From Thermoplasmata archaeon (GTDB lineage Archaea > Thermoplasmatota > E2 > JACPAO01 > JAHFTW01): a stretch of DNA of 64,000 nucleotides. Location of the stretch: contig JAXDQS010000010.1 of the NCBI GenBank assembly GCA_034667725.1, forward strand, positions 217,937-281,936. The letters run 5' to 3'. Shown piece by piece: positions 31,038 to 57,162 of the stretch. The notes beneath the pieces were generated by a model. The model was not told the origin of the DNA. It was given only the letters and a program-made list of their open reading frames with translations, and made no database searches. The number at the start of each line of letters is the position of its first letter. The stretch's first letter is position 1. The position numbers and the translations under genes are program-made.

Positions 31038-31043
31038 TTATAT
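31038..31043 (+). promoter_or_regulatory. TATA-like box, leaderless spacing to the ATG at 31069
   Basis: ttatat in a GC-rich context ~29 nt upstream of the ATG that begins the signal peptide MRPLLLVATALLMF. Confidence 0.3.
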
Positions 31044-31068
31044 GGGGACGGCGCCCATCGACCTACCC

Positions 31069-33003
31069 ATGCGCCCCCTCCTCTTGGTGGCCACCGCCCT
31101 GCTGATGTTCGCGTTCGTGGCCAGCGCCCCGCACGCGGACGCCCAAGGCGCTTCCACACTTACCGTCACCATCTGCGCCCAGCCGACCTATTCCGAGTCC
31201 AAGGACACGGCCCTGTGCGAGGGCCGCGGCTTGGCGGGCGCCACCGTCCGCGTCACCCGCAACGGCCCGCTCGGCAACAACGTCGGCGCCGTCGACCGCA
31301 GCGCGACCACCGACGCCAACGGTGTCGCCGCCTTCGACGCCTTGGCGGACGGCACCTACAACCTCCAGGCGACCCGCGCCGGCTTCGCCGCGCGCACGGC
31401 CACCGTCGAGGTCGCGGGCGCCACCAAGGCGGCCTACACCCTCGCCGGCGTCCCGGTCGAGTTCCAAGGCATCGTCAAGGACGCCGCCGGCAAGCCGGTG
31501 GCCGAGGCCATCGTCACGGTGTGCTGCTCGCGCGACTCCTCGTACCAGCCGCCCGTCGCCACCGGCGAGGACGGCCTGTTCCGGGTCGCGACCACGGGCG
31601 GCTACCAGTCGGTCGGCGCCTACGACGCCCCAGGCTTCGTGCCTTACAACGCCGAGGTGCTGGTGGACGGCAGCCGCCAGGACATCACCCTGGAGCGGGT
31701 CCCCGCCCAGGACGCCGAACTCCACGGCGTCGTGCGCGACCAGGACGGCAAGCCCGTCGCCGGCCTGCGCATCGACGCCAACCCCTCGTGCTGCCACACC
31801 GAGCCGATGCCGGCCGACGAGCCGGGCGCGCCCGCGTCGTCGGTGCCCCCCAGCCCCGGCTACGCCTACTACGGCAACCACACCACGACCGCCAGCGACG
31901 GCTCCTACGCGATCCACGTCTACGGCGGCGCCACCGTCGGCCTGCGCGTCGGCTCCGAGGACTTCGCCCCGCTCTACAAGGACGTCCAGGTCGGCAAGGG
32001 CGCCTCCGTGCGCGCGGACCTCGACGTCAAGCGCTACCCGCCCCGCGACGCCCGCATCGAGGGCCGCGTCACCGACGGCGACGGCCACGGCATCGGCTCG
32101 GTCGCGATCACGGTCAACAACCCCGAGTTCGGCCGCACCGAGCAAGGCGGCCAATGGTGCGCCGCCGCCCCCGTGCCGATGATGGCAGAGGGCGACGCCA
32201 TCGCCAAGCCCGCCATCTGGGCCGGCCCGGAGTGCTCCCTCAGCGTGCAGGCCGACGGCAGCTTCTCCGGCCTCGTGACCCCCGGCTACAGCATCGTCAC
32301 CGTGTACTACGTCTGCATGGAGGGCGACTGCGCCGACGGCTACTACCCGTCCGTCCGCACCCTGGTGCTGCGCTCCGGCACCCAGCGCCTCGACGTCGCC
32401 CTCGTGCCCCGCCCCGGCCCCGACGCCACCCTGTCCGGCTACCTCGTGGACGCCGACCAGCGCGAAGGCATCGCCGGCCCCGACGCCCGCATCGACCTCT
32501 ACAACCTCGACAACGGCGCCTGGGGCAGCGCGGTCGCCGACGCGCAAGGCTCCTACAAGATCCGGCTCCGCAGCGGCCTCCACCAGGTCACCGCCTACGC
32601 CGACGGCCACCTCCACTGGGAAGGCATCGTCAGGGTCGAGCCCGGCGACAACGCGCTCGACATCCTCATGACGGCCGGCCAGGACACCGGCTACGGCGGC
32701 TGCTGCTACCTCGCGCAGGACAGCAAGGGCATGGCCACCACCGCCACCGCCTCCCCGGCCCCGATGACGCCGGGCGACGACGGCGGCAGCCGCGTCGCCG
32801 AGCAGGAGCTGCGCCAGAACCTCGCCGCCAACACGCCCGCCTTCGAGGACCTCAACGGCGGCCTCGGCCCGTACGACCCGGACGAGCGCCCCGCCCCGAA
32901 CAACGGCACCGGCACCCGCGCCAGCCCGGCGCTGGGCCTGCTGACGGTGCTGGGCGTCGCGGCCGCGATGGTCGTGGCGCGGCGCAAGGGCCGCGAATCC
33001 TAG
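31069..33003 (+). CDS. Surface protein with carboxypeptidase-regulatory-like beta-sandwich repeats and C-terminal TM anchor
   Basis: Signal peptide; repeated GxxGAxVxV...DxxGxxxF...DGTYxL modules; C-terminus SPALGLLTVLGVAAAMVVARRKGRES. The ORF-track start at 31042 would begin inside the TATA-like box. Confidence 0.55.
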   Translation: MRPLLLVATALLMFAFVASAPHADAQGASTLTVTICAQPTYSESKDTALCEGRGLAGATVRVTRNGPLGNNVGAVDRSATTDANGVAAFDALADGTYNLQATRAGFAARTATVEVAGATKAAYTLAGVPVEFQGIVKDAAGKPVAEAIVTVCCSRDSSYQPPVATGEDGLFRVATTGGYQSVGAYDAPGFVPYNAEVLVDGSRQDITLERVPAQDAELHGVVRDQDGKPVAGLRIDANPSCCHTEPMPADEPGAPASSVPPSPGYAYYGNHTTTASDGSYAIHVYGGATVGLRVGSEDFAPLYKDVQVGKGASVRADLDVKRYPPRDARIEGRVTDGDGHGIGSVAITVNNPEFGRTEQGGQWCAAAPVPMMAEGDAIAKPAIWAGPECSLSVQADGSFSGLVTPGYSIVTVYYVCMEGDCADGYYPSVRTLVLRSGTQRLDVALVPRPGPDATLSGYLVDADQREGIAGPDARIDLYNLDNGAWGSAVADAQGSYKIRLRSGLHQVTAYADGHLHWEGIVRVEPGDNALDILMTAGQDTGYGGCCYLAQDSKGMATTATASPAPMTPGDDGGSRVAEQELRQNLAANTPAFEDLNGGLGPYDPDERPAPNNGTGTRASPALGLLTVLGVAAAMVVARRKGRES

Positions 33004-33803
33004 CGAAGCGAGGACGCGGCCTTCGCCAGCTCCACGAGCCCCGCCGCCGTGCGCGTGCCGAACCAGGTGAGCGCCTCGCCGTCCACCACCCGCACCCGCC
33101 CGGGCGCGCCGCACGGCCCGAGGCCGGCGGTGTCGACCGGCTTGCGGTGGAACGGGAACGGCTCCGTGGGCAGCAGCGTCCACGCCGCCCCGGCGGCGCG
33201 GACCTCGGCGTCCGTGACCTCGAAGTAGCGCGGCCCCGCGTGGTCCCCGAAGACGTTGCGCAGGCCCGCCGCCGCCAGCATCGCGCTGGGGTAGCTGGTG
33301 CCGTCGAACGTCATCCACGGATGCCAGATCGGGCAGAACACCGGCACCGGCGACGCGGGCCGGGGCAGCGCCGCGACGGCAGCGTCGAAGCCGGCCCGCC
33401 AATGCTGGGCGGCCGCCTCGGCGCCGCCGCCGACCCGCCGCGCCAGGCGCAGCACGAAGGCCGCCGCGTCGTGCGGGGTCGCGATGTCGCTCCACAGCAC
33501 CTCGACGCCGTGGGCTTCCAGCGCGTCCACCAGCGCCTTGGGGTTCTCGTCCTTGTCGGCCACCACGAGCGTGGGCCGCAGCGCGAGGATCTTGTCGAGG
33601 CTGGCGTCCTTGGTGCCGCCCACGTGCGGGACCGTCTTGGCGGCCTCCGGCGCGATGCAGAACCGGGTGCGGCCGACGACCTGGCCGCCGGCGCCGAGGT
33701 CGAACAAGGTCTCGGTGTGGCTCGGCACCAGGCTCACGATGCGCTGCACGGACGGGGCAAGGCGTCGCGCGCTTGGGCCTTCCGTCGCGTCCTCCGACCA
33801 CAA
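33000..33803 (-). CDS. Periplasmic-binding-protein-like (BtuF/TroA-fold) ABC substrate-binding protein
   Basis: 267 aa, class III SBP-like pattern (IVSLVPSHTETLFDLGAGGQVVGRT..., LRPTLVVADKDEN). No obvious signal peptide. Confidence 0.55.
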   Translation of the reverse strand: MWSEDATEGPSARRLAPSVQRIVSLVPSHTETLFDLGAGGQVVGRTRFCIAPEAAKTVPHVGGTKDASLDKILALRPTLVVADKDENPKALVDALEAHGVEVLWSDIATPHDAAAFVLRLARRVGGGAEAAAQHWRAGFDAAVAALPRPASPVPVFCPIWHPWMTFDGTSYPSAMLAAAGLRNVFGDHAGPRYFEVTDAEVRAAGAAWTLLPTEPFPFHRKPVDTAGLGPCGAPGRVRVVDGEALTWFGTRTAAGLVELAKAASSLR

Positions 33804-33835
33804 CCGTTCTAAGGGTGGGGGAAGTGAGAACCGCG

Positions 33836-35119
33836 ATGGAGGAGGCGGCGCCCACCGAGAGCCCCTTGCCGGGCGCCGGCGCCAAGGGCAAGCCGGTGCG
33901 CGTCCACCCCTACGCGCTCGAGCTGTCCACGGCCGCCGAGCTGCGCCGCGACCCGCGCATGGTCACCCTGTTCTGGGCCGGCCTGGGCACGGCGCTGGTG
34001 CTGCTGGGATTGGGGCTCGCCAACCGCTTCAGCCCCTGCCTGAACGGCGTCGGCCCCGAGCCCTGCGCCACCCCCGCGGCATGGACCAGCTGGGTCCAGC
34101 TTCCCCTGTTCGGCGGCCTTGCCCTGCTGGGCTTCGGCTTCGTGCAGCGCCAATGGGCCCGCCGCGTCACGCTTGCCGGCTGGCTGCTGTTCGGGTTCTA
34201 CTGGGCGCTCACCGCGCAGGACCTGTTCGTGGCCGAGGGCGGCGACATCGTCAACCTCTGCTTCGCCATCGTCGGCGTCTACTTCTTCGTCTACCTGGCC
34301 TACCACCAATGGCTCTCCGAGGCGCGCGGCATCGAGAACCTCACCGTCCGGTTCCTCAACATCGCCACCTTCGTCGCCGCCGGCTCCTACTTCGTCATCG
34401 ACAAGATCGAGCCGGTCCGCAAATGGCTCATCCTCACCGTCAGCCGCCACACCGAATGGATGCTGGGGCTGTTCGGGCAAGGCGCCGACGCCGGCCTCCG
34501 GGCCGTCTACAACCCCGCCGGCAGCACGAGCGACTTCCAGGCCGACCTGGCCCGCTTCTACTACGAGGGCCACCTCAACCACTGCCCCTCGCAGCCGAGC
34601 GACTGGTTCTCCAGCCTGATGCACTGGGACCCGTTCGCCCGCCAAGCCCTCGACGCCTGCCGCGACTTCTCGGCCCACGAGGCCGTCATCGTCCCCGTCT
34701 CGATCATCCTGGCCTGCACCGCCCTCCAGTCCATCATGCTGTTCGTCGGCCTGTTCATGGGCACCCCGGCCCCATGGAAGCGGCGCCTGCTGGCGTCGGC
34801 CATCGTCGCCGCCGTCGTGTACGTCCTCAACCTGCTGCGGAACACCGGCATCGTGTGGTTCTACGGCCAAGGCGAGGCCTCGTTCTGGATGATGCACGAC
34901 GCCGTCGGCAAGGGCGGCAGCCTGGTCGCCATGATCCTCATCGCGTTCGCCGCCTTCGCCTGGTTCCCCGAGTTCCTCAAGGCGCTCGTCGGCGTGCTGG
35001 ACCTGCCGCACCGCGACGGCCCCATCGAGCGCACGCTGCGCCTTGGCAGGCGGCGGCCCGACCAAGGCGCGCCGCCAGCGGAGCCGCCGGCCGAGACGCC
35101 GGCACCCCCCGTCCACTGA
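33836..35119 (+). CDS. Polytopic membrane protein, candidate exosortase/archaeosortase-family enzyme
   Basis: 427 aa, ~8 TM helices. Cys293 sits in a TM helix (SIILACTAL) and NLLRN lies 42 residues later, reminiscent of the archaeosortase catalytic Cys/Arg arrangement recalled from the literature. Family assignment is tentative. Confidence 0.4.
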   Translation: MEEAAPTESPLPGAGAKGKPVRVHPYALELSTAAELRRDPRMVTLFWAGLGTALVLLGLGLANRFSPCLNGVGPEPCATPAAWTSWVQLPLFGGLALLGFGFVQRQWARRVTLAGWLLFGFYWALTAQDLFVAEGGDIVNLCFAIVGVYFFVYLAYHQWLSEARGIENLTVRFLNIATFVAAGSYFVIDKIEPVRKWLILTVSRHTEWMLGLFGQGADAGLRAVYNPAGSTSDFQADLARFYYEGHLNHCPSQPSDWFSSLMHWDPFARQALDACRDFSAHEAVIVPVSIILACTALQSIMLFVGLFMGTPAPWKRRLLASAIVAAVVYVLNLLRNTGIVWFYGQGEASFWMMHDAVGKGGSLVAMILIAFAAFAWFPEFLKALVGVLDLPHRDGPIERTLRLGRRRPDQGAPPAEPPAETPAPPVH

Positions 35120-35177
35120 AGGCGGGGTCGCGCCCGGCCTCCGATTTAATCATTTGCGCTCTGGGCCAGTGTTGGAC

Positions 35178-38100
35178 ATGGGCTGCAAACGGTCAAGAAG
35201 GCACGGCGGTCGCTGGGCCTTGACAATGGTCGTCCACCGCTTGTCCCCGCTCGCCGCTGCCTTCATCCTGGCAGTCTCCACCCTCGCCGCCGCGCCGGCG
35301 TCGGCCCTCATCGTCGGCCCCGTCGGCCCCATCGACCCCGACCTCATCAACGTAGACTGCGAGGACAGTGCCGCCGTTAGGGCCGCCTGCAACGCGGTGG
35401 CCACCCTCACGGAGGACCCTGGCGAGATCACCGTCGGGTGCGGCGACGGGTACGCCGGCAACGCCTGCCGCGAAGCCTTGGACACCCTCGAGGACCCGCC
35501 CGCGGCCTGCGAGGCCGTCACGTTCGCGATCTGCGAGGCGGTGGCCCGGCTGCTGGCCGACGACGGCGGCGACCCCGTCGGCCAGTGCCTGCACGACCTC
35601 GGCTTCGACACCGTCGTGATGCCCCAGCCCGGCACCAGCATCGTCAACCTGGACTGCTCGCAGCTTGGCGAGACCCTGGCGAGCCTCTACGTCATCCTGG
35701 ACAACCTGGCGGCGCGGGGCGGCGCCACCCTGAACTCCTGCCTGGCGCTGTTGGGCGACGGCATTGCCAACCTGGAGTCGAGCGGCCCGCCACTGGTGGA
35801 TTGCGAAGGCCTCGGCGAGACCGCCCGCGACACCGTCCAGGCCGCCATGGACCTGGTGGACCGCGAAGCCGACGACGCCATGCGCACCGTCGAGGCGTGC
35901 GTCTACGGCGCGCCCCCGCCGTCCGCCGGCGCCGCGCTGTGCCGCTCCCTCTACAACACGCTCGTCCTCTACCTCGCCTTCGCCGTCCAGACCGGCCTCC
36001 AGGCGGCCAACCACCAGCTTGAGTGCCAAGGCCTCGACACCGTCTCCATCACGGCGCCCGCCCCCGAGGGCGACCCGCCCGCCACCTTCGGCCTGCCGGA
36101 GGAGTGCGTGACCGCCCACCTGCTCTTGACCGCCGTCCAGGAGGCCGTCGCCAACGTGCTGCGCATCGCCGGCGACCTCGCGCCCTCCGTCTCGCTCTGT
36201 GTCGCCGAGGTCCCCGGCGGCCCCACCACCGTCACCCTCGACTGCCGCTACGTCGAGCGCGTCGTGCGCACCGTCGGCGACGCCGAGGCCACCGTCATGC
36301 TCGTCGTGCAGCAATACCTCGACGACTGCCAAGGCCGCGGCGCGCCCCCCGAGGGCCTGCCGAGCTGCCGCGAGCAGGTCGAGAACCTGCAGCGCATCGT
36401 GGACCGCAACTTCGCCGGCGCCTGGCGTGCCGCCCAGGAAGCCGCCGCCGACCTGCAGGCCTGCGCCGCGGCCGCCGCCGCGAGCACCTGCGCGGCCACG
36501 CAAGACTGCGCCCTGCTGCCCTGCGTCCTGCCCGGCGCCTGCGACACCGGCTGCGCCAGCAACGGCACCACCTCCTACCCGGCGCGCGCCAACGGCACCG
36601 CCACCGACGCCCGCATCGGCAACGTCTTCGAGTTCGTGGCCCCCGTCACGGGCGCCGCGGTCCCGGTCGACGTCCACGACTACGACGGGGACGGCATCCC
36701 CGACCTGCTGGACCCCGTCAACCTCCCCTCCGAGACCCTGCGCACGACCTCCGGCGCCGACAACCTGACGCTGCTGGACGGCCTCGGCGAGCAAGGCTTC
36801 GTCCTCTTGATCGAGCCCGGCCACCGGGAGGCCCAGCTCGTGGCCGCCGACCCGCTCGGCGTGGCCCTGTCGCTGCTGCCCGTCGAGGTGCTCGACGCCG
36901 CCACCACCCTCCAGCTTTTGGGCCAGACCCACGGCGGCCACGTCGCCGACCTGCTGGCCAGCGCCCTCAACGAGAACATGACGGTGAACGTCACCTGGGT
37001 CGTCCCGCAGCTGCCCACCGTCGTCCCCCTGCATTGGGCCGGCGGCGCCATCCCCGCCGACGGCAGCTGGCTCATGGCCCGCTCCGACCCGACCCGCCGC
37101 GTCACGTTGGCGCTCTCCGGCCTTGACGTCAAGCTGGAGGCCCCCAGCGCCAGCCACGCCAGCACCGACCCCGACCTGTCGTACCGCTGGGAGTTCCTCA
37201 ACCTCTGGGGCAAGAAGGGCTTCTGCTTCGACCCCACCACCTACACCGGCGGCACCGGCCAGTGCGAAGGCAAGGCCGAGCCCGGCTGGCTGCGCGCCTA
37301 CAGCGGCCGCGCCCACTACGCCCTCCAGGCCGTCGCCGAGAACCTGGAGCGCGGCCTGTCCGACCTGGCGGCGACCCCGGCGGGCACCAACGGCACCGCC
37401 CTGGAGCCCATCCTGGCGCCGACCGAGGGCCTGCGCGGCGACGAGGTCCCCGCCGACGCCATCGACCTGTTCGACCCCTCCTCGCTGGTGCACGCCATCG
37501 GCGACAACAGCACCTCGTTCCCGCCCGGCGTCGGCGTCGACTACCAGGTCCCGGCCCGCGAGCCGCGCTCCCTGCCGCGCCCCGCCATCCTGCAAGCCCC
37601 CGACGCCCTGCTCACGACCGACGTGGACCTGTCGGCCTACCGCCCGACGCGCACCTTCCGCTTCGACGCCCAGTTCTACGAGACCCCCGGCACGCCGCGC
37701 GACCTGCAGCTGCTGACGCTGCACATCACGCCGGCCGACGGCAACGACGCCGCCCAGACCTTCGTGCTCGACGGCCGCGCCTTCACGGAGTACCTGCGCC
37801 TGCTGCCCGGCGAGCAGCTCGCCCTCGATATCGACGCCGATCACTTGGACGGCTTCGTCCAGGTCTCCAAGGACGTCAACGCCGACGGCTGGGAGGACCT
37901 CGTCGTGCAGGTGCCCCACTTCAGCACCGTCACCATGGACGTCCACAGCGACAACTCGATCGCCTACCCCATGTGGACCATGGTCAAGATGACCAGCGCC
38001 ACCGAGGGCTGGCTCACCGGCCCTTACGGCGCCATGTACAAGTACAGCGCCGGCCGCGTCTACCGTCACGACATCCCCGGCCTCGCGGGCCAGATGCGCT

Positions 38101-41100
38101 CCATCGCGCTGCACGTCGTCGGCCCCAACGACGTCTGGGTGGCGGGCGACGGCGACTGCAACCTCGCCGACCCGTCGCCGTTCATCGCCCACTACTACTA
38201 CGGCAGCTGGAGCATCTTCCGCACGTCGCAGGTCGGCCCCGGCTGGGCCTGCGAGGGCTTCATCACCATCTGGATGGACCCCACCGGCTCCTTCGGCTAC
38301 GCGGGCGGCACCGACGGCATGTGGTTCAAGTACGCCAGCGGCGCGTGGAACCCCGCCCCCAGCCCCGCGCCCGGCGCCTGCGTCCGCGACATCGCCTTCG
38401 ACAGCAGCGGCCGCGGCTACGTCGGCGCCAACACCGACTTGTGCCTGGCCAGCGGCCGCCCCGCCATCAGTTACTGGGACGGCAGCTCGTGGAGCAGCCA
38501 CAGCACCTACGGCAGCACCGAGATCTGGAGCGTCATGGACGGCTCCGGCCAATGGGCCGCCGCCATTCCCAAGGACCCGGCCACCCACGGCATCCTGCAA
38601 CAGTCCGGCTCGTCCTGGTCCCTCGCCTCCGTCCCCGTTCCGGCGGGCCATTACTACGGCATGACGCGCGCGCCCGACAGCCGCCTCTGGTTCAGCGCCA
38701 CCGACCGCAGCAACCGCGGCTTCCTGGTCGAACGCGACCCGTCCGGCACCTGGACGACGCACTGGTTCCAGACCCGCATCGGCTTCCTGCGCGACGTCTC
38801 GATGTCGTCCAGCACGGCGGGCCTCGTCGTCGGCGACAAGAACATCCTGGCCATCCAGGTCTCGTCGGCCGCCGCCGCCTCCGCCGACTGGATCTGGGAC
38901 AGCCTGTCGCCGACCTCCGGCACCACCAGCACGACGTTCGCCGGCCGCGACTCCGGCACCCGCGACCCCGACAGCGGCAGCGGCACCGTCGCGCACACCT
39001 GGAACTGGGGCGACGGCTCGGCCAACGACCTGGCCGCCAACGCCGACCACGTCTACCAGGCGCCCGGCACCTACGCCGTCACCCACCAGGTGCGTGCCAG
39101 CAGCACCGGCCAGGCCAACGCGCACGGCTGGACCGTCACGGTGAACCCCCAGTCCACCAGCATCGGCCCCAGCACCTCGGACTCGCTGCCCGCCGGCACC
39201 CGCGTGGCCCCGAAGTACTACCAGTACACCAACGCGGCCAGCGACGGCCAGGCGCATGACTTCCGCGTCGTGCTCGGCGGCGCTGCCGGCGTCAAGATGA
39301 CGATCCGCAAGGGCACCGGCATGGGCGACTTCAGCGCCGGCGGCAACTGGCCCAACTACGGCGCCGCCGGCCGCGACCTGTCCGGCCCCATCGCCTACGG
39401 CCAGTCCATCACCATCCGGGTCGAGCAGGACACCAGCGTGAGCCCCTACGGCGGCTCCTACACCCTCACGGTGACGCAGCTGCCGCCCCCGCCCAACCCG
39501 GCCTTGAGCAGCCTGGTGCCGCAGCCGATGGAGGCGCTGACCCGCGGCTACGAGGAGCTGACGTTCCGCGTCACCTGGACCGACACGCAAGGCTACCAGC
39601 CCCGCGACGCCAGCGGCGCCACCAGCCCGCCCACCATCACGCTGGACACCAACGGCGACGGCGCCCTGGAGACCTACTCCATGCACCTGGACCGGCCGCT
39701 GTTCACCGGCTCCACCTACAAGGCGATCTACTCGTACTCGACCTACCTCAAGGAAGGCAGCGGCACCCAGCCGATCTACAAGGCTTGGGACACGCAGCCC
39801 TACCAGCAGGTCGCCACCGGCGCCTGGATCTACGCCCGCGCCACCGTCCTCAAGGCCTACGACTTCGAGGCCGACGCCGTCGACCGCCTCCCGGCAGGCT
39901 TCGCCAACGTCCCGCTGGCCGGCCACCCGGTGAGCTACTGGCACGTCACCGACACCGCCAAGGCGGGCACGCCCGACCGCGTCGCCTTCGGCGCGCACGG
40001 CAAGGCCCTCTGGTTCGGCCAGGAGTCCTCCGGGAACTACGTCGACGCCGACGGCCGCGCCCCGGGCGGCGCCCTCGAGACGCCGGTGCACGACCTGAAC
40101 CGCATGGACAAGCCGGTGCTGTCGTTCGCGTCGCTCTACGAGACCCAGGACGACGGCAGCAGCATCGACGTCAAGCAGGTCCACATCAAGGCCCGCGACC
40201 CCGGCGGCGTCTGGGGCGGCTGGGTGCTGCTGCAGGCCGTCCACGGCCCCGGCTTCCTGCCCGGCCGCTGGAACACCGTGGCCGCCAGCCTCGCCGACTA
40301 CGCCGGCAAGGAGGTCGTGCTGCGCTTCCAGTTCCAGGCCGACAACGCCAACAACGGCTACCTCGGCTGGTACGTCGACGACATCGTGCTCGGCAGCGAC
40401 GCCGACGGCGACCTGATCCCCGACCTGAAGGAGGCCAACCGCGTCATCGGGCTCCGCAACGGCGCCGTCGGCCCCGTCAACGTCGCCCCCGGCCAGACCG
40501 GCGCCAGCTACGTCAACCGCGTCAGCACCTCCGGCTTCCAGGGTGTCGTCGCCGAGGCCGTCCTCTACTCCGAGCGGCCGCAGGACCTGCGCGTCGAGCT
40601 GCTGGTGCCGCCGGCGGGCACGCTCCCCGGCGACTTCCCCGCGCTCACGACCGAATTCCGGCCGTTCAAGCTGAACCCGGCCGCGGCGCCCGCCACCGAC
40701 ACGGTGTGCGGCGTCACCAGCCCGGTGCGCAACTCCCTGTCGCCCTGGTACGCGACCTACCCGAACCTGCTCTTGGACCCCGCCACCGGCTTCGACAACC
40801 CCCGCATCGGCGGCGGCTTCGGCCCCGACTCGCGCCCGACCGTCGTGCCGATCCACGCCCTGGAGTTCAAGCGGGTCGACGGCGTCGGCCTTGCCATCAA
40901 GGCGGACCTCACCGAATGCCTCAAGGCCGCCGGCTTGAGCGAGTTCGGCGTCCACGACGTCGTGCTGCGCGTCCAGAACACCGCCGCCTCCGGCACCGCG
41001 ACCATCGAGTCGTTCGCGGTCACCGGCGTCGGCCGGTCGTCGATGTTCAGCGCCCGCAGCGCCGCCATCGGCATGGGCGACTACCGCGCCAGCGACGGCG

Positions 41101-42806
41101 GCTGGCTGGGCGGCGGCACGCCGCTGGGCCCCGACGCCGACTGGGACGGCATGGCGCGCGGCGAGGACGGCAACGACATGGTGCCGACCTACGTGCCGTT
41201 GGTCTTCGTCGACTACAACAAGCCCGAGGAGGGCCTGCAGTTCGCCCTCGACAGCAAGCGCGTCGTGCTGTCCGTCGACATCCTGGCCACCACCGGCACC
41301 ACCACGCGCGACGTCGCGACCCCGGTGGCCCAGGCCTACGGCGAGTGGCGCAACTACGTCCTGCCGGCCAGCCGGTTCGCCGGCGCCGACAGCCTGCGCA
41401 TCGTCGTCAGCCTGGCCGGCGGCTCGGTCATGACCATCGAGGCGGCCTTCAAGGACCGCCAGCCGCAGCTGGCCAGCCTCACCGAGTCCTTCCTGGCCGA
41501 CCCCGGCAACCCCTCGCCGGAGCCTGGCAGCCACTACCTGACCGACGCCGAGCGCAACCTCGGCTACATCATGGGCGGCGCCAAGGCCCTCTACTGGGTC
41601 TACAAGGCGGGCAAGCTCATCACGGGCGTCGGGGCCGCCGAGACCGCCCTCGAAGGGGCCACCCTGGTCGTCAAGACCGTCGGCAAGTGGGCCATCGTCA
41701 AGGTCGCCAAGGAGGGCCTCAAGTCGGCCTACGCCTCCAGTGGCGAGCTCACCATCTACGAGAAGACCTCGCGCCACAACATCTACAAGGGCCGGACCTC
41801 GCGCGGCGACTACCCCGAGGTCTACGACCTCTTGGACGAGGCCATCACCAACGCCCAAGGCCCGTACCCCACCATCGGCGGCAACAACGTCTGGTTCTAC
41901 GAGAAGGCGGTGGACCCGTCGACGGGCGCCATCGCCAAGCTCTACGTGCTGGAGACCCGCCAGGACGGCGACCTGTTCCGCGGCTGGGGCCACTCGCTTG
42001 CCAGCTGGGGCCAGATGGTGTCGCGGCCCTACACGGCCGGCGCGGACGCCAACACCGTCCACGCCACCGACGTCTCGGACATCCAGAGCATCGAGCGGCT
42101 GGCCAAGGTCGCCGGCCCGTACCCGAGCTTCGGGAGCTTCCTGTGCGCCGTCACTTGCTATGCCGAGGTGGACGGCGACCCCGGCCGCGTCCACCTGCAA
42201 GCCTACGGCGTCAACTGGGACAACCGCCACGACAGCAAGCTCGACGTCGACGCCGGCTGGGTCACGGCGGCGCGCTACGCCGCCTACCGCCCGAACTCGT
42301 GGGTGCCTTCCATCAACGAGGGCCAGCGCGACCTCCAGCTCGCGGGCTGGATCCGGTCGTACCGCTTCATCCACGACAACGGCGTCCACGCCTCGGCCTC
42401 GCAGGACGCGAAGGCCTTCTGGGGCGACGACTACGCCTCGAACCCAGGATGCGCTGCCGAGACCACGCGCCGCTGCCAGGCGCCGACCGCGACCTTCGAC
42501 GGCCACGGCGTCTTCGCCCAGGGCTTCACCCTGCGCTGGACGACCTCGTCGAGCCCCACGGTCCTCAAGACCGACAAGGCGGCCAGCTTCGGCCTCTACA
42601 CCAACTCCGACCGCGGGCCCTGGGATGGCCGCTCCGGCATCGAAAAGAGGCGCGACACCCTGGCGACGTCGCTCGGCACCCCGGGCTCCGGCCATGACGC
42701 GAACCTCATCCTGGCGCTCGACGCCAGCGGCGCCACCTGGGAGGACGACCACTACTACCCAGAGTACGGCCCGCACACCTTGGAGGAGTTCTACGACGTC
42801 CCGTAG
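35178..42806 (+). CDS. Giant secreted multidomain protein (~2540 aa)
   Basis: Single uninterrupted frame. Signal peptide, Cys-rich helical N-terminal ~450 aa, propeller-like W/Y/G-rich repeats, a PKD-like domain (TVAHTWNWGDGSANDLAANADHVYQAPGTYAVTHQV), a GWYVDDIVLG motif and a ~600-aa K/Y/I-rich C-terminal module. The antisense ORF is low-complexity. Confidence 0.7.
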   Translation: MGCKRSRRHGGRWALTMVVHRLSPLAAAFILAVSTLAAAPASALIVGPVGPIDPDLINVDCEDSAAVRAACNAVATLTEDPGEITVGCGDGYAGNACREALDTLEDPPAACEAVTFAICEAVARLLADDGGDPVGQCLHDLGFDTVVMPQPGTSIVNLDCSQLGETLASLYVILDNLAARGGATLNSCLALLGDGIANLESSGPPLVDCEGLGETARDTVQAAMDLVDREADDAMRTVEACVYGAPPPSAGAALCRSLYNTLVLYLAFAVQTGLQAANHQLECQGLDTVSITAPAPEGDPPATFGLPEECVTAHLLLTAVQEAVANVLRIAGDLAPSVSLCVAEVPGGPTTVTLDCRYVERVVRTVGDAEATVMLVVQQYLDDCQGRGAPPEGLPSCREQVENLQRIVDRNFAGAWRAAQEAAADLQACAAAAAASTCAATQDCALLPCVLPGACDTGCASNGTTSYPARANGTATDARIGNVFEFVAPVTGAAVPVDVHDYDGDGIPDLLDPVNLPSETLRTTSGADNLTLLDGLGEQGFVLLIEPGHREAQLVAADPLGVALSLLPVEVLDAATTLQLLGQTHGGHVADLLASALNENMTVNVTWVVPQLPTVVPLHWAGGAIPADGSWLMARSDPTRRVTLALSGLDVKLEAPSASHASTDPDLSYRWEFLNLWGKKGFCFDPTTYTGGTGQCEGKAEPGWLRAYSGRAHYALQAVAENLERGLSDLAATPAGTNGTALEPILAPTEGLRGDEVPADAIDLFDPSSLVHAIGDNSTSFPPGVGVDYQVPAREPRSLPRPAILQAPDALLTTDVDLSAYRPTRTFRFDAQFYETPGTPRDLQLLTLHITPADGNDAAQTFVLDGRAFTEYLRLLPGEQLALDIDADHLDGFVQVSKDVNADGWEDLVVQVPHFSTVTMDVHSDNSIAYPMWTMVKMTSATEGWLTGPYGAMYKYSAGRVYRHDIPGLAGQMRSIALHVVGPNDVWVAGDGDCNLADPSPFIAHYYYGSWSIFRTSQVGPGWACEGFITIWMDPTGSFGYAGGTDGMWFKYASGAWNPAPSPAPGACVRDIAFDSSGRGYVGANTDLCLASGRPAISYWDGSSWSSHSTYGSTEIWSVMDGSGQWAAAIPKDPATHGILQQSGSSWSLASVPVPAGHYYGMTRAPDSRLWFSATDRSNRGFLVERDPSGTWTTHWFQTRIGFLRDVSMSSSTAGLVVGDKNILAIQVSSAAAASADWIWDSLSPTSGTTSTTFAGRDSGTRDPDSGSGTVAHTWNWGDGSANDLAANADHVYQAPGTYAVTHQVRASSTGQANAHGWTVTVNPQSTSIGPSTSDSLPAGTRVAPKYYQYTNAASDGQAHDFRVVLGGAAGVKMTIRKGTGMGDFSAGGNWPNYGAAGRDLSGPIAYGQSITIRVEQDTSVSPYGGSYTLTVTQLPPPPNPALSSLVPQPMEALTRGYEELTFRVTWTDTQGYQPRDASGATSPPTITLDTNGDGALETYSMHLDRPLFTGSTYKAIYSYSTYLKEGSGTQPIYKAWDTQPYQQVATGAWIYARATVLKAYDFEADAVDRLPAGFANVPLAGHPVSYWHVTDTAKAGTPDRVAFGAHGKALWFGQESSGNYVDADGRAPGGALETPVHDLNRMDKPVLSFASLYETQDDGSSIDVKQVHIKARDPGGVWGGWVLLQAVHGPGFLPGRWNTVAASLADYAGKEVVLRFQFQADNANNGYLGWYVDDIVLGSDADGDLIPDLKEANRVIGLRNGAVGPVNVAPGQTGASYVNRVSTSGFQGVVAEAVLYSERPQDLRVELLVPPAGTLPGDFPALTTEFRPFKLNPAAAPATDTVCGVTSPVRNSLSPWYATYPNLLLDPATGFDNPRIGGGFGPDSRPTVVPIHALEFKRVDGVGLAIKADLTECLKAAGLSEFGVHDVVLRVQNTAASGTATIESFAVTGVGRSSMFSARSAAIGMGDYRASDGGWLGGGTPLGPDADWDGMARGEDGNDMVPTYVPLVFVDYNKPEEGLQFALDSKRVVLSVDILATTGTTTRDVATPVAQAYGEWRNYVLPASRFAGADSLRIVVSLAGGSVMTIEAAFKDRQPQLASLTESFLADPGNPSPEPGSHYLTDAERNLGYIMGGAKALYWVYKAGKLITGVGAAETALEGATLVVKTVGKWAIVKVAKEGLKSAYASSGELTIYEKTSRHNIYKGRTSRGDYPEVYDLLDEAITNAQGPYPTIGGNNVWFYEKAVDPSTGAIAKLYVLETRQDGDLFRGWGHSLASWGQMVSRPYTAGADANTVHATDVSDIQSIERLAKVAGPYPSFGSFLCAVTCYAEVDGDPGRVHLQAYGVNWDNRHDSKLDVDAGWVTAARYAAYRPNSWVPSINEGQRDLQLAGWIRSYRFIHDNGVHASASQDAKAFWGDDYASNPGCAAETTRRCQAPTATFDGHGVFAQGFTLRWTTSSSPTVLKTDKAASFGLYTNSDRGPWDGRSGIEKRRDTLATSLGTPGSGHDANLILALDASGATWEDDHYYPEYGPHTLEEFYDVP

Positions 42807-43938
42807 CCGCGCCCTCTTGGCCGTCGCGGCGGCGCTGCTGCTGGCCGGCTGCCTGGGGTCGGTGGACGACGGCAGCCAGGCCCCGCCGCCGGACGCCTGC
42901 GCGGACGGCGTGCCGCCGTGCGTCCGCAACGCCGACGCCGAGCTGCTGGAGGCCAAGTACGGCTTCCGGCAACTCAGCAACGGCACCGGCCGGCCGCTCC
43001 AGCCGTGGGTCACGAACGGCTTCGCCGGCTGGTCGGTGTTCTACTCGGACGCCTCCCCCCGCGTGGACCTCGCGGCGCGGACCCTGGCGGAAGATGACGA
43101 CGACGGCGCGGCCCGCGGGCTCACGCTGGCGGCCGGCGGCAAGGTCGCCTACACCTTGACGCCGCTGGCCAACGACGCGCTCGACCACGCCCACGCCCGC
43201 CTGCTGCTGCAGGACGCCGCCACCGGCGAGGCCACGCCCCTCGTGGAGGACCGCGGGCTGTATCCTCGCGCCTTCGGCCCGCCGTGGCTGCTGCTGCAAG
43301 AAGACAAGGGCGACGGCGCGCCGCGCGACCTCTGGGCCCTCCACGTCGAGACGCGGGCGCTGCAACTGGTCTCCGACCGCAGCGGCGAGGCCCACGGCGG
43401 CCCCGTCGTGACCGGCCACGCCGTCGCCGGCCACCACGCCGTCTGGGCCGAGGCCGAGCCCCAGCCGGACGGAAGCTTCGCCTACTCGGTGCGCACCCGC
43501 GACCTGGAGGCCCAAGCCGACGGCCCGACGTTCCGCGTCGCCGGCGGCGGCGAGGTCGACTGGATCGCCAGCACCGGCGCCGCCGCGGCCATCCTGGTCG
43601 GCCACGACGCGGGCGCCGACCTTTTGCTCTTCGACCCCGCCACCGGCCAGGCACGCCCGCTGGGCCCCGAGCCCGGCTGGAACGCGGTGCTCGCCGCCGC
43701 GGGCGGCGGCGCCGTCGTCGTGGCCGAGCGCCGCGGCGACGACGAGGCCCGGCTGCGCCTCATCCGCGCCGACGGCACGTCGGAGGCGCTGGCGGACCTG
43801 GAGGAGCTGGCGGTGGCGTCGATGGCCACCGACGGCCACGACCTCGTGCTGGTGGCCTACGCGTCGCCAAGCCGCGGCCTGCGCTACGAAGGCACCCAGG
43901 TCTACTGGAAGCCGCTCGACCTCGGCAATCGCGCTTAA
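42693..43938 (+). CDS. Putative lipoprotein (beta-rich), start uncertain
   Basis: Lipobox LLLAGC after a basic n-region (TSRSRALLAVAAALLLAGCLG). The only upstream in-frame ATG (42693) overlaps the giant gene's 3' end by 113 nt in another frame; a TTG at 42816 is the alternative. Confidence 0.45.
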
Positions 43939-43941
43939 GAG

Positions 43942-44598
43942 TTGCACCTCCGTCGCGCCGCCGTGGCGCGCTTTGCGCGGGGGTCCGCCCCCTGGCTGCT
44001 GGCCCCCGTGACCCTCGCGGTCGTGCTGGTGGCCTACGGTCTGCAGTCGAAGGACGTCTGGCCGTTCGTCGCCGCGGTCCTGCCGCTCTTGGTGTTCGCG
44101 TTCTTCATCGTGTTCTTCCGCGACCCCGACCGCCTGGCCTCGGAAGGCATCGCGAGCCCCGCCGACGGCACCGTGAGCTTCATCGACGAGGTGGACGACC
44201 CCGACCTCGGCCGGGTCGAGCGCTTCTCGATCTTCATGTCGCCTAAGGACGTCCACGTCAACCGCTACCCGGTGGACGGCACCGTCGTGTCGGTGCTGCA
44301 CAAGCCCGGCGGCCACGTGCCCGCCTTCAACAAGGAGGCCGAGCGCAACGAGCGGGTCGAGACCCTGCTGGCCACCGCCCACGGCCGCGTCAAGGTCATC
44401 CAGATCGCCGGCACCGTGGCCCGCCGCATCGTGCCCTACCACAAGGCCGGCGAGGCCGCCGTCAAGGGCGAGCGCTTCGGCCTCATCCGCCTCGGCTCGC
44501 GCTGCGACATCCTGGTCGCGCCCGGCACGGTGCGCTGGACCGTCCCGCCCGGCACCCAGGTCTACGCCGGCACCACCAGCCTGGGGGCGTTCAAGTGA
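43942..44598 (+). CDS. psd: Archaetidylserine (phosphatidylserine) decarboxylase proenzyme, short form
   Basis: 218 aa; N-terminal membrane helices, Psd-like core and a near-C-terminal GTTS motif consistent with the self-cleavage site of short PSDs. Confidence 0.65.
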   Translation: MHLRRAAVARFARGSAPWLLAPVTLAVVLVAYGLQSKDVWPFVAAVLPLLVFAFFIVFFRDPDRLASEGIASPADGTVSFIDEVDDPDLGRVERFSIFMSPKDVHVNRYPVDGTVVSVLHKPGGHVPAFNKEAERNERVETLLATAHGRVKVIQIAGTVARRIVPYHKAGEAAVKGERFGLIRLGSRCDILVAPGTVRWTVPPGTQVYAGTTSLGAFK

Positions 44599-45443
44599 CC
44601 CAGCCGCCGCCCGGCGCCCCTGGCGCCCCCGCCGCGGGCGACGGCGACACCTGGCGCGGCTACTTCCGCGCCGCCCTGCGCGACGAGTGGGACGGCCTCG
44701 ACCGCATCAACCGCGACCTCCGGCTGGCGGACCTGTTCACGCTCACCAACGCCCTCATGGGCCTCGCCGCGCTGCTGCTGATCGCCACCGCGCCCTACGA
44801 GGCCCGCTGGGACCGCATCCACCTCGCCATCGAGCTGGTCCTGGTCGGCGTCATCATGGACGGCGTCGACGGCGCCGTGTCCCGCATGGGCAAAGGCAAC
44901 GGCCCGCTCGGCGCCGTCCTCGACACGCTCGCCGACGCCTTGACCTTCGTCGCCACCAGCGCCGTCGTCACCTTCGTCTTCATCGACACCGCCCGCGGCG
45001 GCGAGACCGACCCGTTCCTCGACCGCTGGGGCAGCCTGCTCGCCCTCGGCTTCTACGTCGTGTGCGGCCTGCTGCGCCTGGCCCGCTTCGAGTCGCTCCG
45101 GGACACCGGCAAGCCCCGCGACTACTTCTCCGGCATCCCGACGCCCGCCGCCGCCCTCATGCTGCTGGCCATGGTGCTGGTCGAGTCGCCCGACTGGCTG
45201 CTGCTGTCGGCCGCGTTCGTGCTCGGCATCCTCATGACGACCCGCGCCCGCTACCCGAAGATCCGCGGCTGGATCGCCGTCGGCACCGTCGCCATCCTGC
45301 TCGCCATCCTCGTGAGCTTCAGCAACCCCGACTTCCAGGCGTGGCTCGCGCGCGGCCTCCTGGCCCTCATGGCGCTCTACGTCCTTGCCGGCCCCTTCGT
45401 CGTGCTCGCCCGCCACGGCGCCAACTTCCCGGGGTCCCGGTAG
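44595..45443 (+). CDS. pssA: CDP-alcohol phosphatidyltransferase (archaetidylserine synthase-like)
   Basis: DGxxAR...G...G...D...D signature in DGVDGAVSRMGKGNGPLGAVLDTLADALTF; multiple TM helices. Start overlaps the psd stop. Confidence 0.75.
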   Translation: MTQPPPGAPGAPAAGDGDTWRGYFRAALRDEWDGLDRINRDLRLADLFTLTNALMGLAALLLIATAPYEARWDRIHLAIELVLVGVIMDGVDGAVSRMGKGNGPLGAVLDTLADALTFVATSAVVTFVFIDTARGGETDPFLDRWGSLLALGFYVVCGLLRLARFESLRDTGKPRDYFSGIPTPAAALMLLAMVLVESPDWLLLSAAFVLGILMTTRARYPKIRGWIAVGTVAILLAILVSFSNPDFQAWLARGLLALMALYVLAGPFVVLARHGANFPGSR

Positions 45444-45444
45444 G

Positions 45445-46896
45445 ATGCCCAAGGCCCCGCGCCAACGACGCACCAGCATCCGCACCGCCAGCGACGCCGT
45501 CCAAGACCAGTACGTCGCCCGCATCCGCGCCCTCGCCGACGACCCCACCGTCGTGCTCCCCGAGCCCGTCGGCCCCGAGCACCCCGTCCTTGCCAAGCTG
45601 CGCCGCCGCCTAAAGGCCGGCAAGCTCCCCGTCACCGCCCGCTTCGACAAAGGCCTCGTCGGCGCCGTCCGCGTCGCCCTGTCCCTCGCCGACGTCGACT
45701 CGGCGCCCCGCATGGTGGACGCCCGCGTCGACGGCAACCGCCGCTTCTACCTCCAGCGCGGCCACGTCGTCCGCCTGTGCAACCTCGGCGTCCAGAACTG
45801 GGACGACCCCCTCAGCCTGATGCTCGCCTACGGCCGCCTCGCCCCCAAGCACGGCCTCCACCTGTTCGCCGGCGACAAGCTCTGGTGCAGCGGCGCCAAG
45901 CCCAACCCCCCGCCCGAATGGTTCGCCGCCCTGGCCCGCCGCACCGGCGTCCCCCTCACCCCCAACGACGACGGCGCCGCCTGCCCGCACGGCGACCGCC
46001 CCCGCCTCGAGCTCCGTATGCGCAACGGCCCCGCCCTCCTCGTGTGCGGCCCCTGCGGCGCCAAGTCCGCCAGCGGCGGCATGAACCTCCACGGCCACCT
46101 CCTGCAACGCTACCTCAGCGACCGCCCCGCCCGCCCCGTCGAGCTCGCCGTCCGCCTCCCCGACGGCAAACGCCACGACCTGCCCGACACCCTCCAGGCC
46201 AGCTACCGCGCCGGCCGCGCCGACGAAGCCGCCATCCTCGAGGTCGCCCTCCAGGCGTTCCACGGCTCGCGCGCCGACGGCGGCTACGTCGCCGCCGGCC
46301 GCACCTACCCCACCCAGTCCGCCTTCCTCGACGCCCTCGGCCTCGCGCCCTGGGAAATGGAGGCCGTCCGCCGCATGACCGCCGACGGCCACATCGGGCC
46401 CAGCCTCGACGTGCCCGTGGTGCTGGCGGCGCACGCCGACAAGCTGCCCGAGGCCGTCGAGGCGCTGCTGCCCGGCGACGGCGCCGCGTTCGCAAGGAAG
46501 CACGCCGGCACCGAGGCGCGGACTTTGCTGCGGATGGCGCACGACGAGGCGCAACGGCGGGCGCGGACCCGCGACTTGCCTGTGCTGGAGGGCGTGGGCC
46601 CGTTGGGGCAGTGGATGGACGCGTTCGTCCGGCAGGCGCGGACTTTGGACCGCGGCGAGCTGCTGCAACAAGTCCGCAAGGAGATCGGCAACCCACGGCA
46701 CCCGGCGCACCTGTACGCTTTTTTGTGCGCGGCGGGATTGGAAAGCGAGGGGGAACGGAGCTTCACCTTGGACCAAAGGGAGGCCGGCAAGCACTGGTCA
46801 GGCGCTGCGGCGAAGGTGATGGCTTCCACTGGTGAAGGGTATCGGCTGGCCGTGCTGGAGTATCTCAGGGAGACGGGGGCGGGGGAGGGGGCGTAG
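45445..46896 (+). CDS. Hypothetical protein with Cys cluster
   Basis: 483 aa; CSGAKP...CPHGDRP...LVCGPCG suggests a metal-binding site. No family recognised. Confidence 0.45.
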   Translation: MPKAPRQRRTSIRTASDAVQDQYVARIRALADDPTVVLPEPVGPEHPVLAKLRRRLKAGKLPVTARFDKGLVGAVRVALSLADVDSAPRMVDARVDGNRRFYLQRGHVVRLCNLGVQNWDDPLSLMLAYGRLAPKHGLHLFAGDKLWCSGAKPNPPPEWFAALARRTGVPLTPNDDGAACPHGDRPRLELRMRNGPALLVCGPCGAKSASGGMNLHGHLLQRYLSDRPARPVELAVRLPDGKRHDLPDTLQASYRAGRADEAAILEVALQAFHGSRADGGYVAAGRTYPTQSAFLDALGLAPWEMEAVRRMTADGHIGPSLDVPVVLAAHADKLPEAVEALLPGDGAAFARKHAGTEARTLLRMAHDEAQRRARTRDLPVLEGVGPLGQWMDAFVRQARTLDRGELLQQVRKEIGNPRHPAHLYAFLCAAGLESEGERSFTLDQREAGKHWSGAAAKVMASTGEGYRLAVLEYLRETGAGEGA

Positions 46897-57154: not shown

Positions 57155-57162
57155 CTTTATTT
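57155..57162 (+). promoter_or_regulatory. TATA-like box (within hairpin CCTGCAAtgctttatTTGCAGG), leaderless spacing to the ATG at 57188
   Basis: ctttattt centred ~30 nt upstream of the ATG that begins the signal peptide. Confidence 0.35.

Follow-up and report, generated by a model that had tools for sequence, protein, structure and literature searches.

In the Sulfolobales, a large secreted protein that carries no anchor of its own (SlaA) is encoded in one operon with a smaller membrane-attached partner (SlaB), which has a C-terminal transmembrane stalk. A large secreted protein followed by a small co-inherited gene is also the arrangement found in polymorphic toxin systems (Zhang et al. 2012, PMC3482391). 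The synteny of the archaeosortase gene artA with pssD and pssA, and the role of this gene set in ArtA-dependent lipid anchoring, have been published as well (Abdul-Halim et al. 2020, PMC7157517).

We analysed 64,000 nucleotides of DNA (the window, to which all coordinates refer) from an uncultured Thermoplasmata archaeon, in which one giant gene is located between artA and pssD-pssA. With a little more confidence than doubt, we interpret the giant ORF as encoding a genuine lineage-specific, Sec-secreted multidomain surface protein, either adhesin-like or associated with the envelope. Neither an enzyme or toxin signature nor a membrane or archaeosortase anchor was found in the giant protein.

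Gene order at the artA locus

The locus is made up of the following features:

33836..35119, + strand: archaeosortase A (artA), TIGR04125 at 123.2 bits versus a cut-off of 75, directly upstream of the giant gene
35146..35152, + strand: ATTAATC, similar to a TATA box, within conserved non-coding sequence 5' of the giant gene, identical in the window and in locus L011
35226..42806, + strand: giant ORF, 2526 aa from a conserved ATG, with the stop codon TAG at 42804-42806
42817..43938, + strand: lipoprotein gene, 373 aa from TTG, with the lipobox LLLAGC
43942-44598, + strand: pssD (archaetidylserine decarboxylase), with Pfam and NCBIfam matches
44595-45443, + strand: pssA (archaetidylserine synthase), with Pfam and NCBIfam matches

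Orthologues of artA are present at 49-83% identity in L003-L007 and L011, and L011 retains the order of artA, giant gene and lipoprotein gene. In L005 and L008, pssD-pssA is located directly after artA, and in L007 it follows after a gap of 1.1 kb; both giant-like sequence and the lipoprotein gene are absent from L003-L008. The adjacency of artA and pssD-pssA in these related genomes indicates that the giant gene and the lipoprotein gene are a lineage-specific insertion. Several blocks downstream of ATTAATC are likewise identical between the upstream regions of the window and L011, and the motif itself may be inferred to be a candidate archaeal promoter.

The TTG start codon of the lipoprotein gene is located 10 nt past the stop codon of the giant gene, and pssD starts 3 nt past the stop codon of the lipoprotein gene; an alternative, conserved ATG of the lipoprotein gene (42694) overlaps the giant gene. 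The lipoprotein of L011 is 63% identical and has the lipobox LLSGC, but the interval from the stop codon of the giant gene to this lipobox contains no canonical start codon. No family, immunity-family or PDB match to the lipoprotein was obtained, and Rfam and tRNA scans of the 64-kb window found nothing.

Integrity of the giant gene

The frame is uninterrupted from 35178 to 42806 (+ strand), as the earlier note had it, and encodes 2542 aa plus stop if ATG 35178 is used (residue numbers follow this count); the ORF opens at 35043. ATG 35226 (MVVHRL...) is aligned with the start of the orthologue and is picked by gene callers, whereas ATG 35178 is not conserved; therefore, the true start probably lies 48 nt downstream of the one assumed previously. 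The giant protein is known from only two uncultured Thermoplasmata genomes: its sole orthologue (P0003), which derives from another sequencing run (SRR34092480), is 75% identical and colinear from end to end.

The change in amino-acid composition over the last ~600 aa might point to an assembly chimera or a pseudogene fusion of two genes as the origin of the different-looking tail, an explanation that deserves next to no credence. Contigs from JGI (369 kb), NCBI (487 kb) and Logan all encode the identical 2526-aa protein; GC3 is uniform and the tail has an omega below 1; and the end-to-end architecture recurs in the orthologue of the other run, an independent sample, which excludes a chimeric assembly and refutes this explanation. 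GC3 (0.95-0.99) and GC (0.69-0.75) are even along the entire length of the gene, with uniform codon usage, and thus give no sign of foreign DNA. A tblastn search of plasmids and phages returned no match, nor did pattern scans of metagenomes, a weak negative result in that the scans also missed the source contig itself.

Export, anchoring and the Cys-rich N-terminal region

The N-terminal part of the giant gene encodes two features:

35226..35306, + strand: Sec-type signal peptide (MVVHRLSPLAAAFILAVSTLAAAPASA), the top Kyte-Doolittle 19-mer in both orthologues, with a conserved AAAPASA site
35340..36587, + strand: Cys-rich, Lys-free acidic N-terminal region, aa 55-470, pI 4.05

The gene is intact and its product is predicted to be exported: the signal peptide proposed in the earlier note is the most hydrophobic 19-mer of both orthologues, and its APASA site is conserved. 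An RR motif is absent from it. The Cys-rich region proposed there was also recovered, with 24 paired Cys in aa 45-480; all 36 Cys beyond the signal peptide occur in nearby pairs, which suggests disulfide bonds. This region of 420 aa has no family match, and its autocorrelation is marginal (lag 88, z=3.7). Its N-terminal tip consists of short C-x7-9-C units, the number of which differs between the two orthologues, that of the orthologue being longer by 20 and 21 residues, equivalent to two more Cys pairs. The tip has the lowest identity of the whole protein (42-49%), with an omega of 0.86.

Besides the signal peptide, there is no hydrophobic segment in the giant protein, and no transmembrane anchor. 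The last 60 aa, ending in ...GPHTLEEFYDVP, match no CTERM model (PGF-CTERM), and the transmembrane-plus-basic C-terminal tails that are present on neighbouring surface proteins are missing from the giant protein. Having neither a PGF-CTERM nor a transmembrane-plus-basic tail, it lacks the feature by which ArtA substrates are defined. A better candidate substrate is a conserved 653-aa CarboxypepD_reg-repeat protein encoded upstream, which has a sorting-signal-like tail.

These features bear on the possibility, which we consider quite unlikely, that the giant protein is the main structural protein of the S-layer or envelope, functionally tied to the ArtA/PssD/PssA anchoring machinery. Such a role would fit the position of the gene inside the artA-pssD-pssA cluster, where it may be co-transcribed with pssD-pssA, and would fit a secreted, acidic, Cys-paired protein with seven N-glycosylation sequons. 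However, the C-terminal signals of an ArtA-anchored protein are lacking, the upstream 653-aa protein is the better substrate candidate, and the giant gene is missing from five of the five nearer relatives with recovered artA loci, which would be unexpected for a core envelope protein. A length of 2526 aa, with few sequons that are all confined to aa 462-777, is also unlike typical S-layer glycoproteins. Orthologues in the form of a conserved housekeeping S-layer protein with a fixed C-terminus had been named beforehand as the outcome that would speak against an effector-like protein; the C-terminus is indeed non-variable, but because related genomes lack the giant gene altogether, it does not qualify as a conserved S-layer gene of the housekeeping kind.

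Central region and domain assignments

Three features were delimited between the Cys-rich region and the C-terminal region:

36615..38897, + strand: best-conserved central region, aa 480-1240, identity 77-91%, omega 0.33-0.43
38910..39152, + strand: PKD domain, PF18911 at 32.8 bits versus a cut-off of 27, aa 1260-1322
39885..40397, + strand: MAM or choice-of-anchor-J-like jelly-roll candidate, sub-threshold, ending in GWYVDDIVLG (aa 1730)

Approximately 90% of the giant protein sequence has no family match, and, PKD apart, most domains were called at scores under curated thresholds. The PKD-like domain that the earlier note described was confirmed above its Pfam cut-off and is matched by the PKD domain of ColH in the PDB (E=5.8e-6). 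PKD segments of two other genes in the window also match it. The GWYVDDIVLG motif was found where expected, inside a sub-threshold InhA-like MAM match, and the matches from NCBIfam searches of sub-segments likewise stayed below threshold (XAC2610_fam, E=0.2; choice_anch_J to the MAM-like segment, E=0.047, 13.9 bits versus a cut-off of 30).

The central region contains the motifs DYDGDGIPD and NADGWEDL and a putative propeller-like W/G-rich segment, but could not be assigned to a family: its matches are weak only (FG-GAP, E=3e-4; Reg_prop, E=0.023). Within it, aa 617-766 are well conserved. Asp-rich motifs of the DxDGDG type look like calcium-binding sites. The propeller-like repeats that had been described were not confirmed, the Reg_prop match being the sole indication of them: comparison of the giant protein with itself by BLAST gave no off-diagonal matches indicative of tandem repeats, and the autocorrelation of the propeller-like region (aa ~930-1240) was not above that of shuffles. 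The signal peptide, paired Cys, PKD domain, MAM-like segment and Asp-rich motifs, in combination with the lack of any cytoplasmic or enzymatic signature, are in keeping with a large, secreted, multidomain adhesin-like protein.

The NCBI entry of the giant protein (MEA3191263.1, from a Thermoplasmata MAG) bears the product name 'Immune inhibitor peptidase', and the partial InhA-like_MAM match would agree with a secreted immune inhibitor A (M6) peptidase. This match, however, stays under its cut-off of 26.9 bits (18.7 and 23.1 bits) and covers just the last ~50 profile positions of an accessory domain, and the giant protein has no Peptidase_M6 match and no HExxH anywhere. A peptidase of this type is hardly credible and effectively refuted.

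The C-terminal region

The C-terminal region is divided into two features:

41526..41825, + strand: fast-evolving Val/Ala/Lys-rich stretch with the 'Gly-zipper', aa 2117-2216, identity 46%
41826..42803, + strand: orphan C-terminal domain or domains, aa 2217-2542, also conserved in the orthologue, as are two Cys pairs

The last ~600 aa had been described as compositionally distinct, being richer in Lys, Tyr and Ile. Lys (3.6% versus 1.4%) and Tyr (5.1% versus 3.2%) are modestly more frequent in the last 588 aa than in the rest of the giant protein, but Ile is unchanged (3.2% versus 2.9%) and codon usage is the same. The Lys excess derives mainly from aa 2111-2230 and is common to the orthologue only in part. 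A Gly-rich stretch is present at aa 2131, in the position of the supposed Gly-zipper, but is not conserved, the orthologue having one of the eight Gly at 38% identity, and the Val/Ala/Lys-rich stretch (aa 2117-2216) is too little hydrophobic for a transmembrane segment. Omega is 0.99 for aa 2027-2226.

The orphan domain (aa 2217-2542) is 70-74% identical to the orthologue and colinear to the last residue (...EEFYDVP). Identity is 69% for the last 588 aa as against 75%, colinear and with no breakpoint, and 74% for aa 2231-2542 (312 aa) versus 75% for aa 17-1954, one orthologue being the basis of these comparisons. The motifs GNNVWFYEKA and LDVDAGWVTAARYAAYRPN are located in the tail.

Exhaustive HMMER searches of the C-terminal 430 aa against 1.84 billion representatives recovered only its own cluster and a weak, short match to P0002, and the C-terminal domain has no Pfam, NCBIfam or PDB match. 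P0002, a PKD repeat protein of the K319L-like type, aligns with the tail at E=9e-6, a motif of ~33 aa being matched nine times; this is at most a hint that aa 2433-2466 form a beta-hairpin or an Ig-like element. AF2 models of the tail, with pLDDT of 31.2 (single sequence) and 30.3 (two-sequence alignment), are unusable; the best PDB match of the two-sequence model in Foldseek (NTF2-like/OCP C-terminal domain, E=0.027) is meaningless at such pLDDT.

Rates of evolution and the question of a toxin

Omega is 0.60 for the giant gene, 0.62 for the lipoprotein gene and 0.28 for artA, values that, like those for conservation, derive from one sequence pair because only two sequences exist, and that may be inflated by the constraint on synonymous sites at a GC3 of ~0.97. 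Non-synonymous evolution of the giant gene is approximately twice that of artA and is fastest in the N-terminal Cys-repeat tip and the stretch preceding the C-terminal domain.

The earlier note compared the layout with that of polymorphic adhesins or effectors with a variable C-terminal domain. If the giant protein were a polymorphic effector or toxin, its last 350-430 aa would form a novel toxin domain, the rest would act as the Sec-secreted carrier, and the lipoprotein would be an extracytoplasmic immunity protein; we consider this unlikely. In toxin-immunity loci of the canonical kind, a small gene directly follows, and is tightly coupled to, the gene for a large secreted carrier, as it does here; the giant and lipoprotein genes, both fast-evolving (omega ~0.6), are found only together; and the C-terminal domain, preceded by a fast-evolving stretch, is an orphan, as are many toxin domains. 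The C-terminus has, however, not been replaced in the orthologue, where the tail is colinear at the identity given above, with no junction motif or breakpoint. Searches of Pfam, NCBIfam, PADLOC, PHROGs and PDB sequences for toxin, pre-toxin, releasing-peptidase and immunity families found none in the giant protein or its locus, in agreement with the earlier statement that no known toxin motif is visible. Downstream of the giant gene there are no orphan toxin or immunity cassettes, the lipoprotein gene, pssD and pssA coming next; a lipoprotein of 373 aa is atypical as an immunity protein; and codon usage is even along the gene.

On visual inspection, the series PEVYDLLDEAITNAQGPYPTIGGNNVWFYEKAVDP...YVLE...FRG...VHATD looks similar to the helix-GPFPY-beta arrangement that RNase Sa shares with barnase. 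With an alignment of RNase Sa, barnase and binase as the query, hhalign gave a probability of 0.15%, hmmsearch --max gave no match there, and a PDB profile search gave no RNase; the motif therefore lends no support to a toxin. Of the adhesin or effector with a variable C-terminus, the large, secreted, adhesin-like protein stands, but its tail is colinear with that of the orthologue and matches no known toxin family. With a tail that is conserved and not swappable, the giant protein looks like an orphan cell-surface protein rather than a toxin with exchangeable warheads.

Proposed function and significance

If the giant protein is a lineage-specific surface protein, as we favour, it would be held at the surface by its conserved C-terminal domain, which would bind the co-encoded membrane lipoprotein non-covalently, a form of tethering that may be likened to the large canopy protein and small membrane anchor of two-component archaeal surface layers. 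At the other end, the variable tip of the N-terminus would point outward and bind external ligands or surfaces, and the tail would be a domain specific to this family and conserved in it, as opposed to a toxin cassette that can be exchanged. A bolder proposal, doubtful though not fanciful, is that the orphan C-terminal domain (aa ~2217-2542) and the lipoprotein form an undescribed archaeal two-partner module in the artA-pssD-pssA operon, which might be either a new non-covalent tether used instead of PGF-CTERM anchoring or a new extracytoplasmic effector-immunity pair with a toxin fold outside the databases.

Should the interpretation as a surface protein be true, the giant protein would be one more of the large, fast-evolving, lineage-restricted surface proteins that make up most of archaeal genome dark matter, and its gene would serve mainly as a caution against over-interpretation, both as a 'polymorphic toxin' and under the database name 'immune inhibitor peptidase'. 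The co-insertion of an unanchored giant protein and a lipoprotein in the compact artA-pssD-pssA cluster raises the question of how wall-less Thermoplasmata retain such proteins. The 430-aa tail, for which the 1.84 billion representative proteins offered no homologue, may represent a new domain.

Comparison with known systems

Polymorphic toxin systems resemble this locus in having a large secreted protein followed by a small co-inherited gene and an orphan C-terminal domain. Unlike in those systems, the C-terminus of the giant protein is not polymorphic in the one comparison that could be made, known toxin, pre-toxin and immunity domains are lacking, there is no cassette array at the locus, and the partner is a 373-aa lipoprotein.

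The likeness to the ArtA/PGF-CTERM system with PssA and PssD lies in the location of the giant gene between artA and pssD-pssA, whereas the C-terminal PGF motif, transmembrane helix and basic tail of its substrates are absent from the giant protein. Because related genomes keep artA-pssD-pssA without the giant gene, its association with the anchoring genes is positional.

With SlaA and SlaB, the likeness is one of gene arrangement only. The partner in the window is a candidate lipoprotein, which would be lipid-modified at its N-terminus, in contrast to the stalk of SlaB, and close relatives do not have the pair.

In overall character, the giant protein also resembles the large multidomain adhesin-like surface proteins of archaea and bacteria with PKD, MAM and calcium-binding motifs. 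Although ~90% of the giant protein matches no family and a recognised anchor is lacking, it shares with them a signal peptide, beta-sandwich-type modules (PKD, and a sub-threshold MAM-like candidate) and Asp-rich motifs; like them it is acidic, evolves rapidly and is restricted to one lineage.

Coding frame and start of the giant gene

GC content across the window is very high (0.65-0.80 per kb). The organism is an archaeon; Orc1/Cdc6, SRP54 and UvrB genes are present. Between 9000 and 12000, GC is 0.76-0.80 versus ~0.72 elsewhere, and both strands carry long, overlapping ORFs. The uninterrupted 7.6-kb frame described in the earlier note opens at 35043 and closes with the TAG at 42804-42806. 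The start proposed there (ATG 35178) yields 2542 aa; gene callers in three public sources chose ATG 35226 (MVVHRL..., 2526 aa). The latter appears the likelier start, since it lines up with the start of P0003, the only orthologue, whereas the ATG at 35178 is not kept in P0003 and sits inside a conserved non-coding stretch. In windows of 200 aa, third-position GC never leaves the range 0.93-0.99, indicating that the frame is coding throughout; with values of 0.95-0.98, the tail (last 588 aa) does not have a foreign DNA composition. The features of the locus are:

35146-35152, upstream of the giant gene: conserved ATTAATC, a candidate archaeal TATA box
directly upstream of the giant gene: archaeosortase A, artA (TIGR04125, 123 bits)
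42817-43938, +: lipoprotein ORF, 373 aa, candidate start TTG 42817, 10 nt past the giant gene's stop; lipobox LLLAGC
43942-44598: pssD, starting 3 nt beyond the lipoprotein ORF's stop and overlapping pssA

Domain content

The giant protein begins with a signal peptide, as predicted: the N-terminus is its most hydrophobic 19-mer and closes with a conserved AAAPASA site, and no other stretch reaches the hydrophobicity of a membrane helix. The Cys-rich region is likewise real (24 cysteines within aa 45-480, with zero lysine and a pI of 4.05), and the 36 cysteines that follow the signal peptide are all arranged as close pairs, a pattern that fits an extracellular, disulfide-bonded protein. Elsewhere, an ORF truncated by the start of the window (2-2008, +), with no Pfam match, has abundant, regularly spaced Cys and Pro at its C-terminus (...CDPTPIQNCIPELPCGTIQECIVRQEPICVTVGGRNPICVTNA).

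Among Pfam domains, only the expected PKD domain passes its threshold (PKD_4 at aa 1260-1322; 32.8 bits, cut-off 27), and the ColH PKD in PDB backs it (E=5.8e-6). The GWYVDDIVLG motif is present at aa 1730, within a partial InhA-like MAM match under the gathering score; choice-of-anchor-J matches very weakly. FG-GAP-type matches (E=3e-4 and 1e-3) are located on DYDGDGIPD and NADGWEDL motifs. The propeller-like repeats of the earlier note could not be confirmed: no periodicity was detected, and Reg_prop gave a single match at E=0.023. NCBI names the product 'Immune inhibitor peptidase', an over-annotation derived from the accessory-domain match; with neither HExxH nor a peptidase domain found in the giant protein, a peptidase is effectively excluded.

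Comparison with the orthologue

P0003 was the one homologue that a full-length search returned. It has 2557 aa (75% identity, 98% coverage), comes from another sequencing run and is colinear from signal peptide through the final ...EEFYDVP. An assembly chimera is effectively excluded.

Identity to P0003 (100-aa windows) and omega (Nei-Gojobori, one pair of genomes; extreme GC3 may inflate values)
N-terminal tip: identity 42-49%; omega 0.86
Centre: identity 77-91%; omega of central blocks 0.33-0.43
aa 1225-1426: omega 0.92
aa 2027-2226: omega 0.99
Around the 'Gly-zipper': identity 46%
aa 2227-2428: omega 0.57
Last 330 aa: identity 70-74%
Giant gene overall: omega 0.60
artA, same genome pair: omega 0.28
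Downstream lipoprotein gene: omega 0.62

The tip of P0003 has 41 extra residues, forming two further small Cys units. Its C-terminus, by contrast with the variable cassette first proposed, is colinear to the end and 70-74% identical over the last 330 aa, which argues, in this one comparison, for a tail that the family conserves and against a swapped cassette; in its non-variable C-terminus, P0003 fits that part of the counter-evidence which the earlier note had named.

Compared with the remaining sequence, the tail is richer in Lys (3.6% vs 1.4%) and Tyr (5.1% vs 3.2%) but not in the Ile also claimed (3.2% vs 2.9%); most of the extra Lys falls within aa 2111-2230. The reported 'Gly-zipper' stretch is present as written but unconserved in P0003 (1/8 Gly, 38% identity) and too weakly hydrophobic for membrane spanning; it is no conserved functional motif. 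A small ORF of ~77 aa directly upstream of uvrB (27824-28057, +) has AKKA-type Lys/Ala repeats at its end (...KKAPAKKAAAKKASAKKAPAKKAAAKKAK), which stand out against the giant protein's 200-aa windows, mostly 0-3% Lys, and may form a histone-H1-like or nucleoid-associated tail.

Exhaustive HMMER searching of 1.84 billion cluster representatives with the last 588 aa recovered only the giant protein's own cluster and one weak match (P0002, E=9e-6), a K319L-like PKD repeat protein in which one ~33-aa motif matched nine times. Pfam, NCBIfam, PADLOC, PHROGs, PDB sequences, plasmids and phages gave no match to the tail. Both AF2 models of the tail were unusable (pLDDT 31 and 30), and Foldseek with an AF2 tail model found no match under E=0.027. 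A likeness to barnase/RNase Sa, seen by eye, was unsupported on testing. In word-indexed protein searches, sub-segment queries missed the giant protein itself while the full-length query recovered it and P0003, so that partial-query negatives for this low-complexity, Ala/Gly/Asp-rich protein are untrustworthy. The family is new to databases, with two members and ~90% of its length without assignment, including a 430-aa tail without homologue.

The artA-pssD-pssA locus

Synteny of artA-pssD-pssA has been published, and PssA and PssD act in ArtA-dependent lipid anchoring (PMC7157517). Among loci of related Thermoplasmatota MAGs (artA 33-65% identical), pssD-pssA comes directly after artA in L005 and L008; in L007 a gap of 1.1 kb precedes it, and in L003 it lies upstream in opposite orientation. 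Within L004 and L006, neither pssD nor pssA was found. Sequences like the giant protein or the lipoprotein, the latter matching no family, are absent from all these loci, whereas the P0003 contig (L011) keeps the order artA (83%), giant gene (75%), lipoprotein (63%), which makes both genes a co-inherited insertion, specific to the lineage, within the anchoring cluster; given that they have native codon usage, the insertion is not recent foreign DNA. The 483-aa ORF 3' of pssA (45445-46896, +) matches no Pfam or NCBIfam family, is syntenic with pssD-pssA in L003, L005 and L007 (44-59% identity), and may belong to the cluster as a conserved, uncharacterised member.

The lipoprotein start was examined in window 42694-42830 and L011 8996-9160. 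L011 has no ATG, GTG or TTG from the giant stop to the lipobox, only CTG codons. An ATG ~120 nt upstream is common to both (42694 and 8996), arising from the giant protein's conserved GSGHDAN codons; a start at 42694 would make the two genes overlap by 113 nt and add ~40 aa, rich in Arg, Ser and Thr, ahead of the lipoprotein signal peptide.

Candidate sorting signals

By the feature that defines ArtA substrates, the giant protein is not one: it lacks the C-terminal transmembrane-plus-basic tail. The window encodes three further secreted proteins that do end in a hydrophobic helix and basic cluster:

17752-19233, +: secreted protein
31042-33003, +: secreted protein with CarboxypepD_reg repeats
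57119-59221, +: secreted protein with PKD/TSP3/He_PIG domains

These tails (e.g. ...SPALGLLTVLGVAAAMVVARRKGRES) resemble candidate signals for sorting by an archaeosortase. None of the three scores with PGF-CTERM in NCBIfam, and the pre-helix motif is not PGF; they may represent a divergent signal of the lineage. L003 and L004 conserve the block 31042-35119 (CarboxypepD_reg protein, TroA-like periplasmic-binding protein on the minus strand, artA), and for this reason the 653-aa repeat protein may be the main substrate of ArtA.

Interpretation

The best-supported prediction is a secreted, disulfide-bonded, multidomain surface protein, adhesin or envelope-associated. Some probability belongs to a polymorphic toxin with an immunity partner, given the toxin-immunity type layout of the giant and lipoprotein genes and the orphan tail. 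Of the features that define such toxins, however, neither a C-terminal replacement nor a known toxin or pre-toxin domain was found, and the closely coupled downstream gene encodes a 373-aa lipoprotein that matches no immunity family. As a surface protein, it would point its fast-evolving N-terminal tip outward and be held non-covalently, its conserved C-terminal domain bound to the co-encoded lipoprotein, a tethering that we infer by analogy with canopy-plus-anchor surface layers. That the gene sits within artA-pssD-pssA is mildly curious. Among archaea, large surface proteins restricted to a lineage are common, and at 2.5 kaa this one reportedly falls far short of the 'giant gene' class in recent literature (for example bioRxiv 10.1101/2023.11.21.568195).
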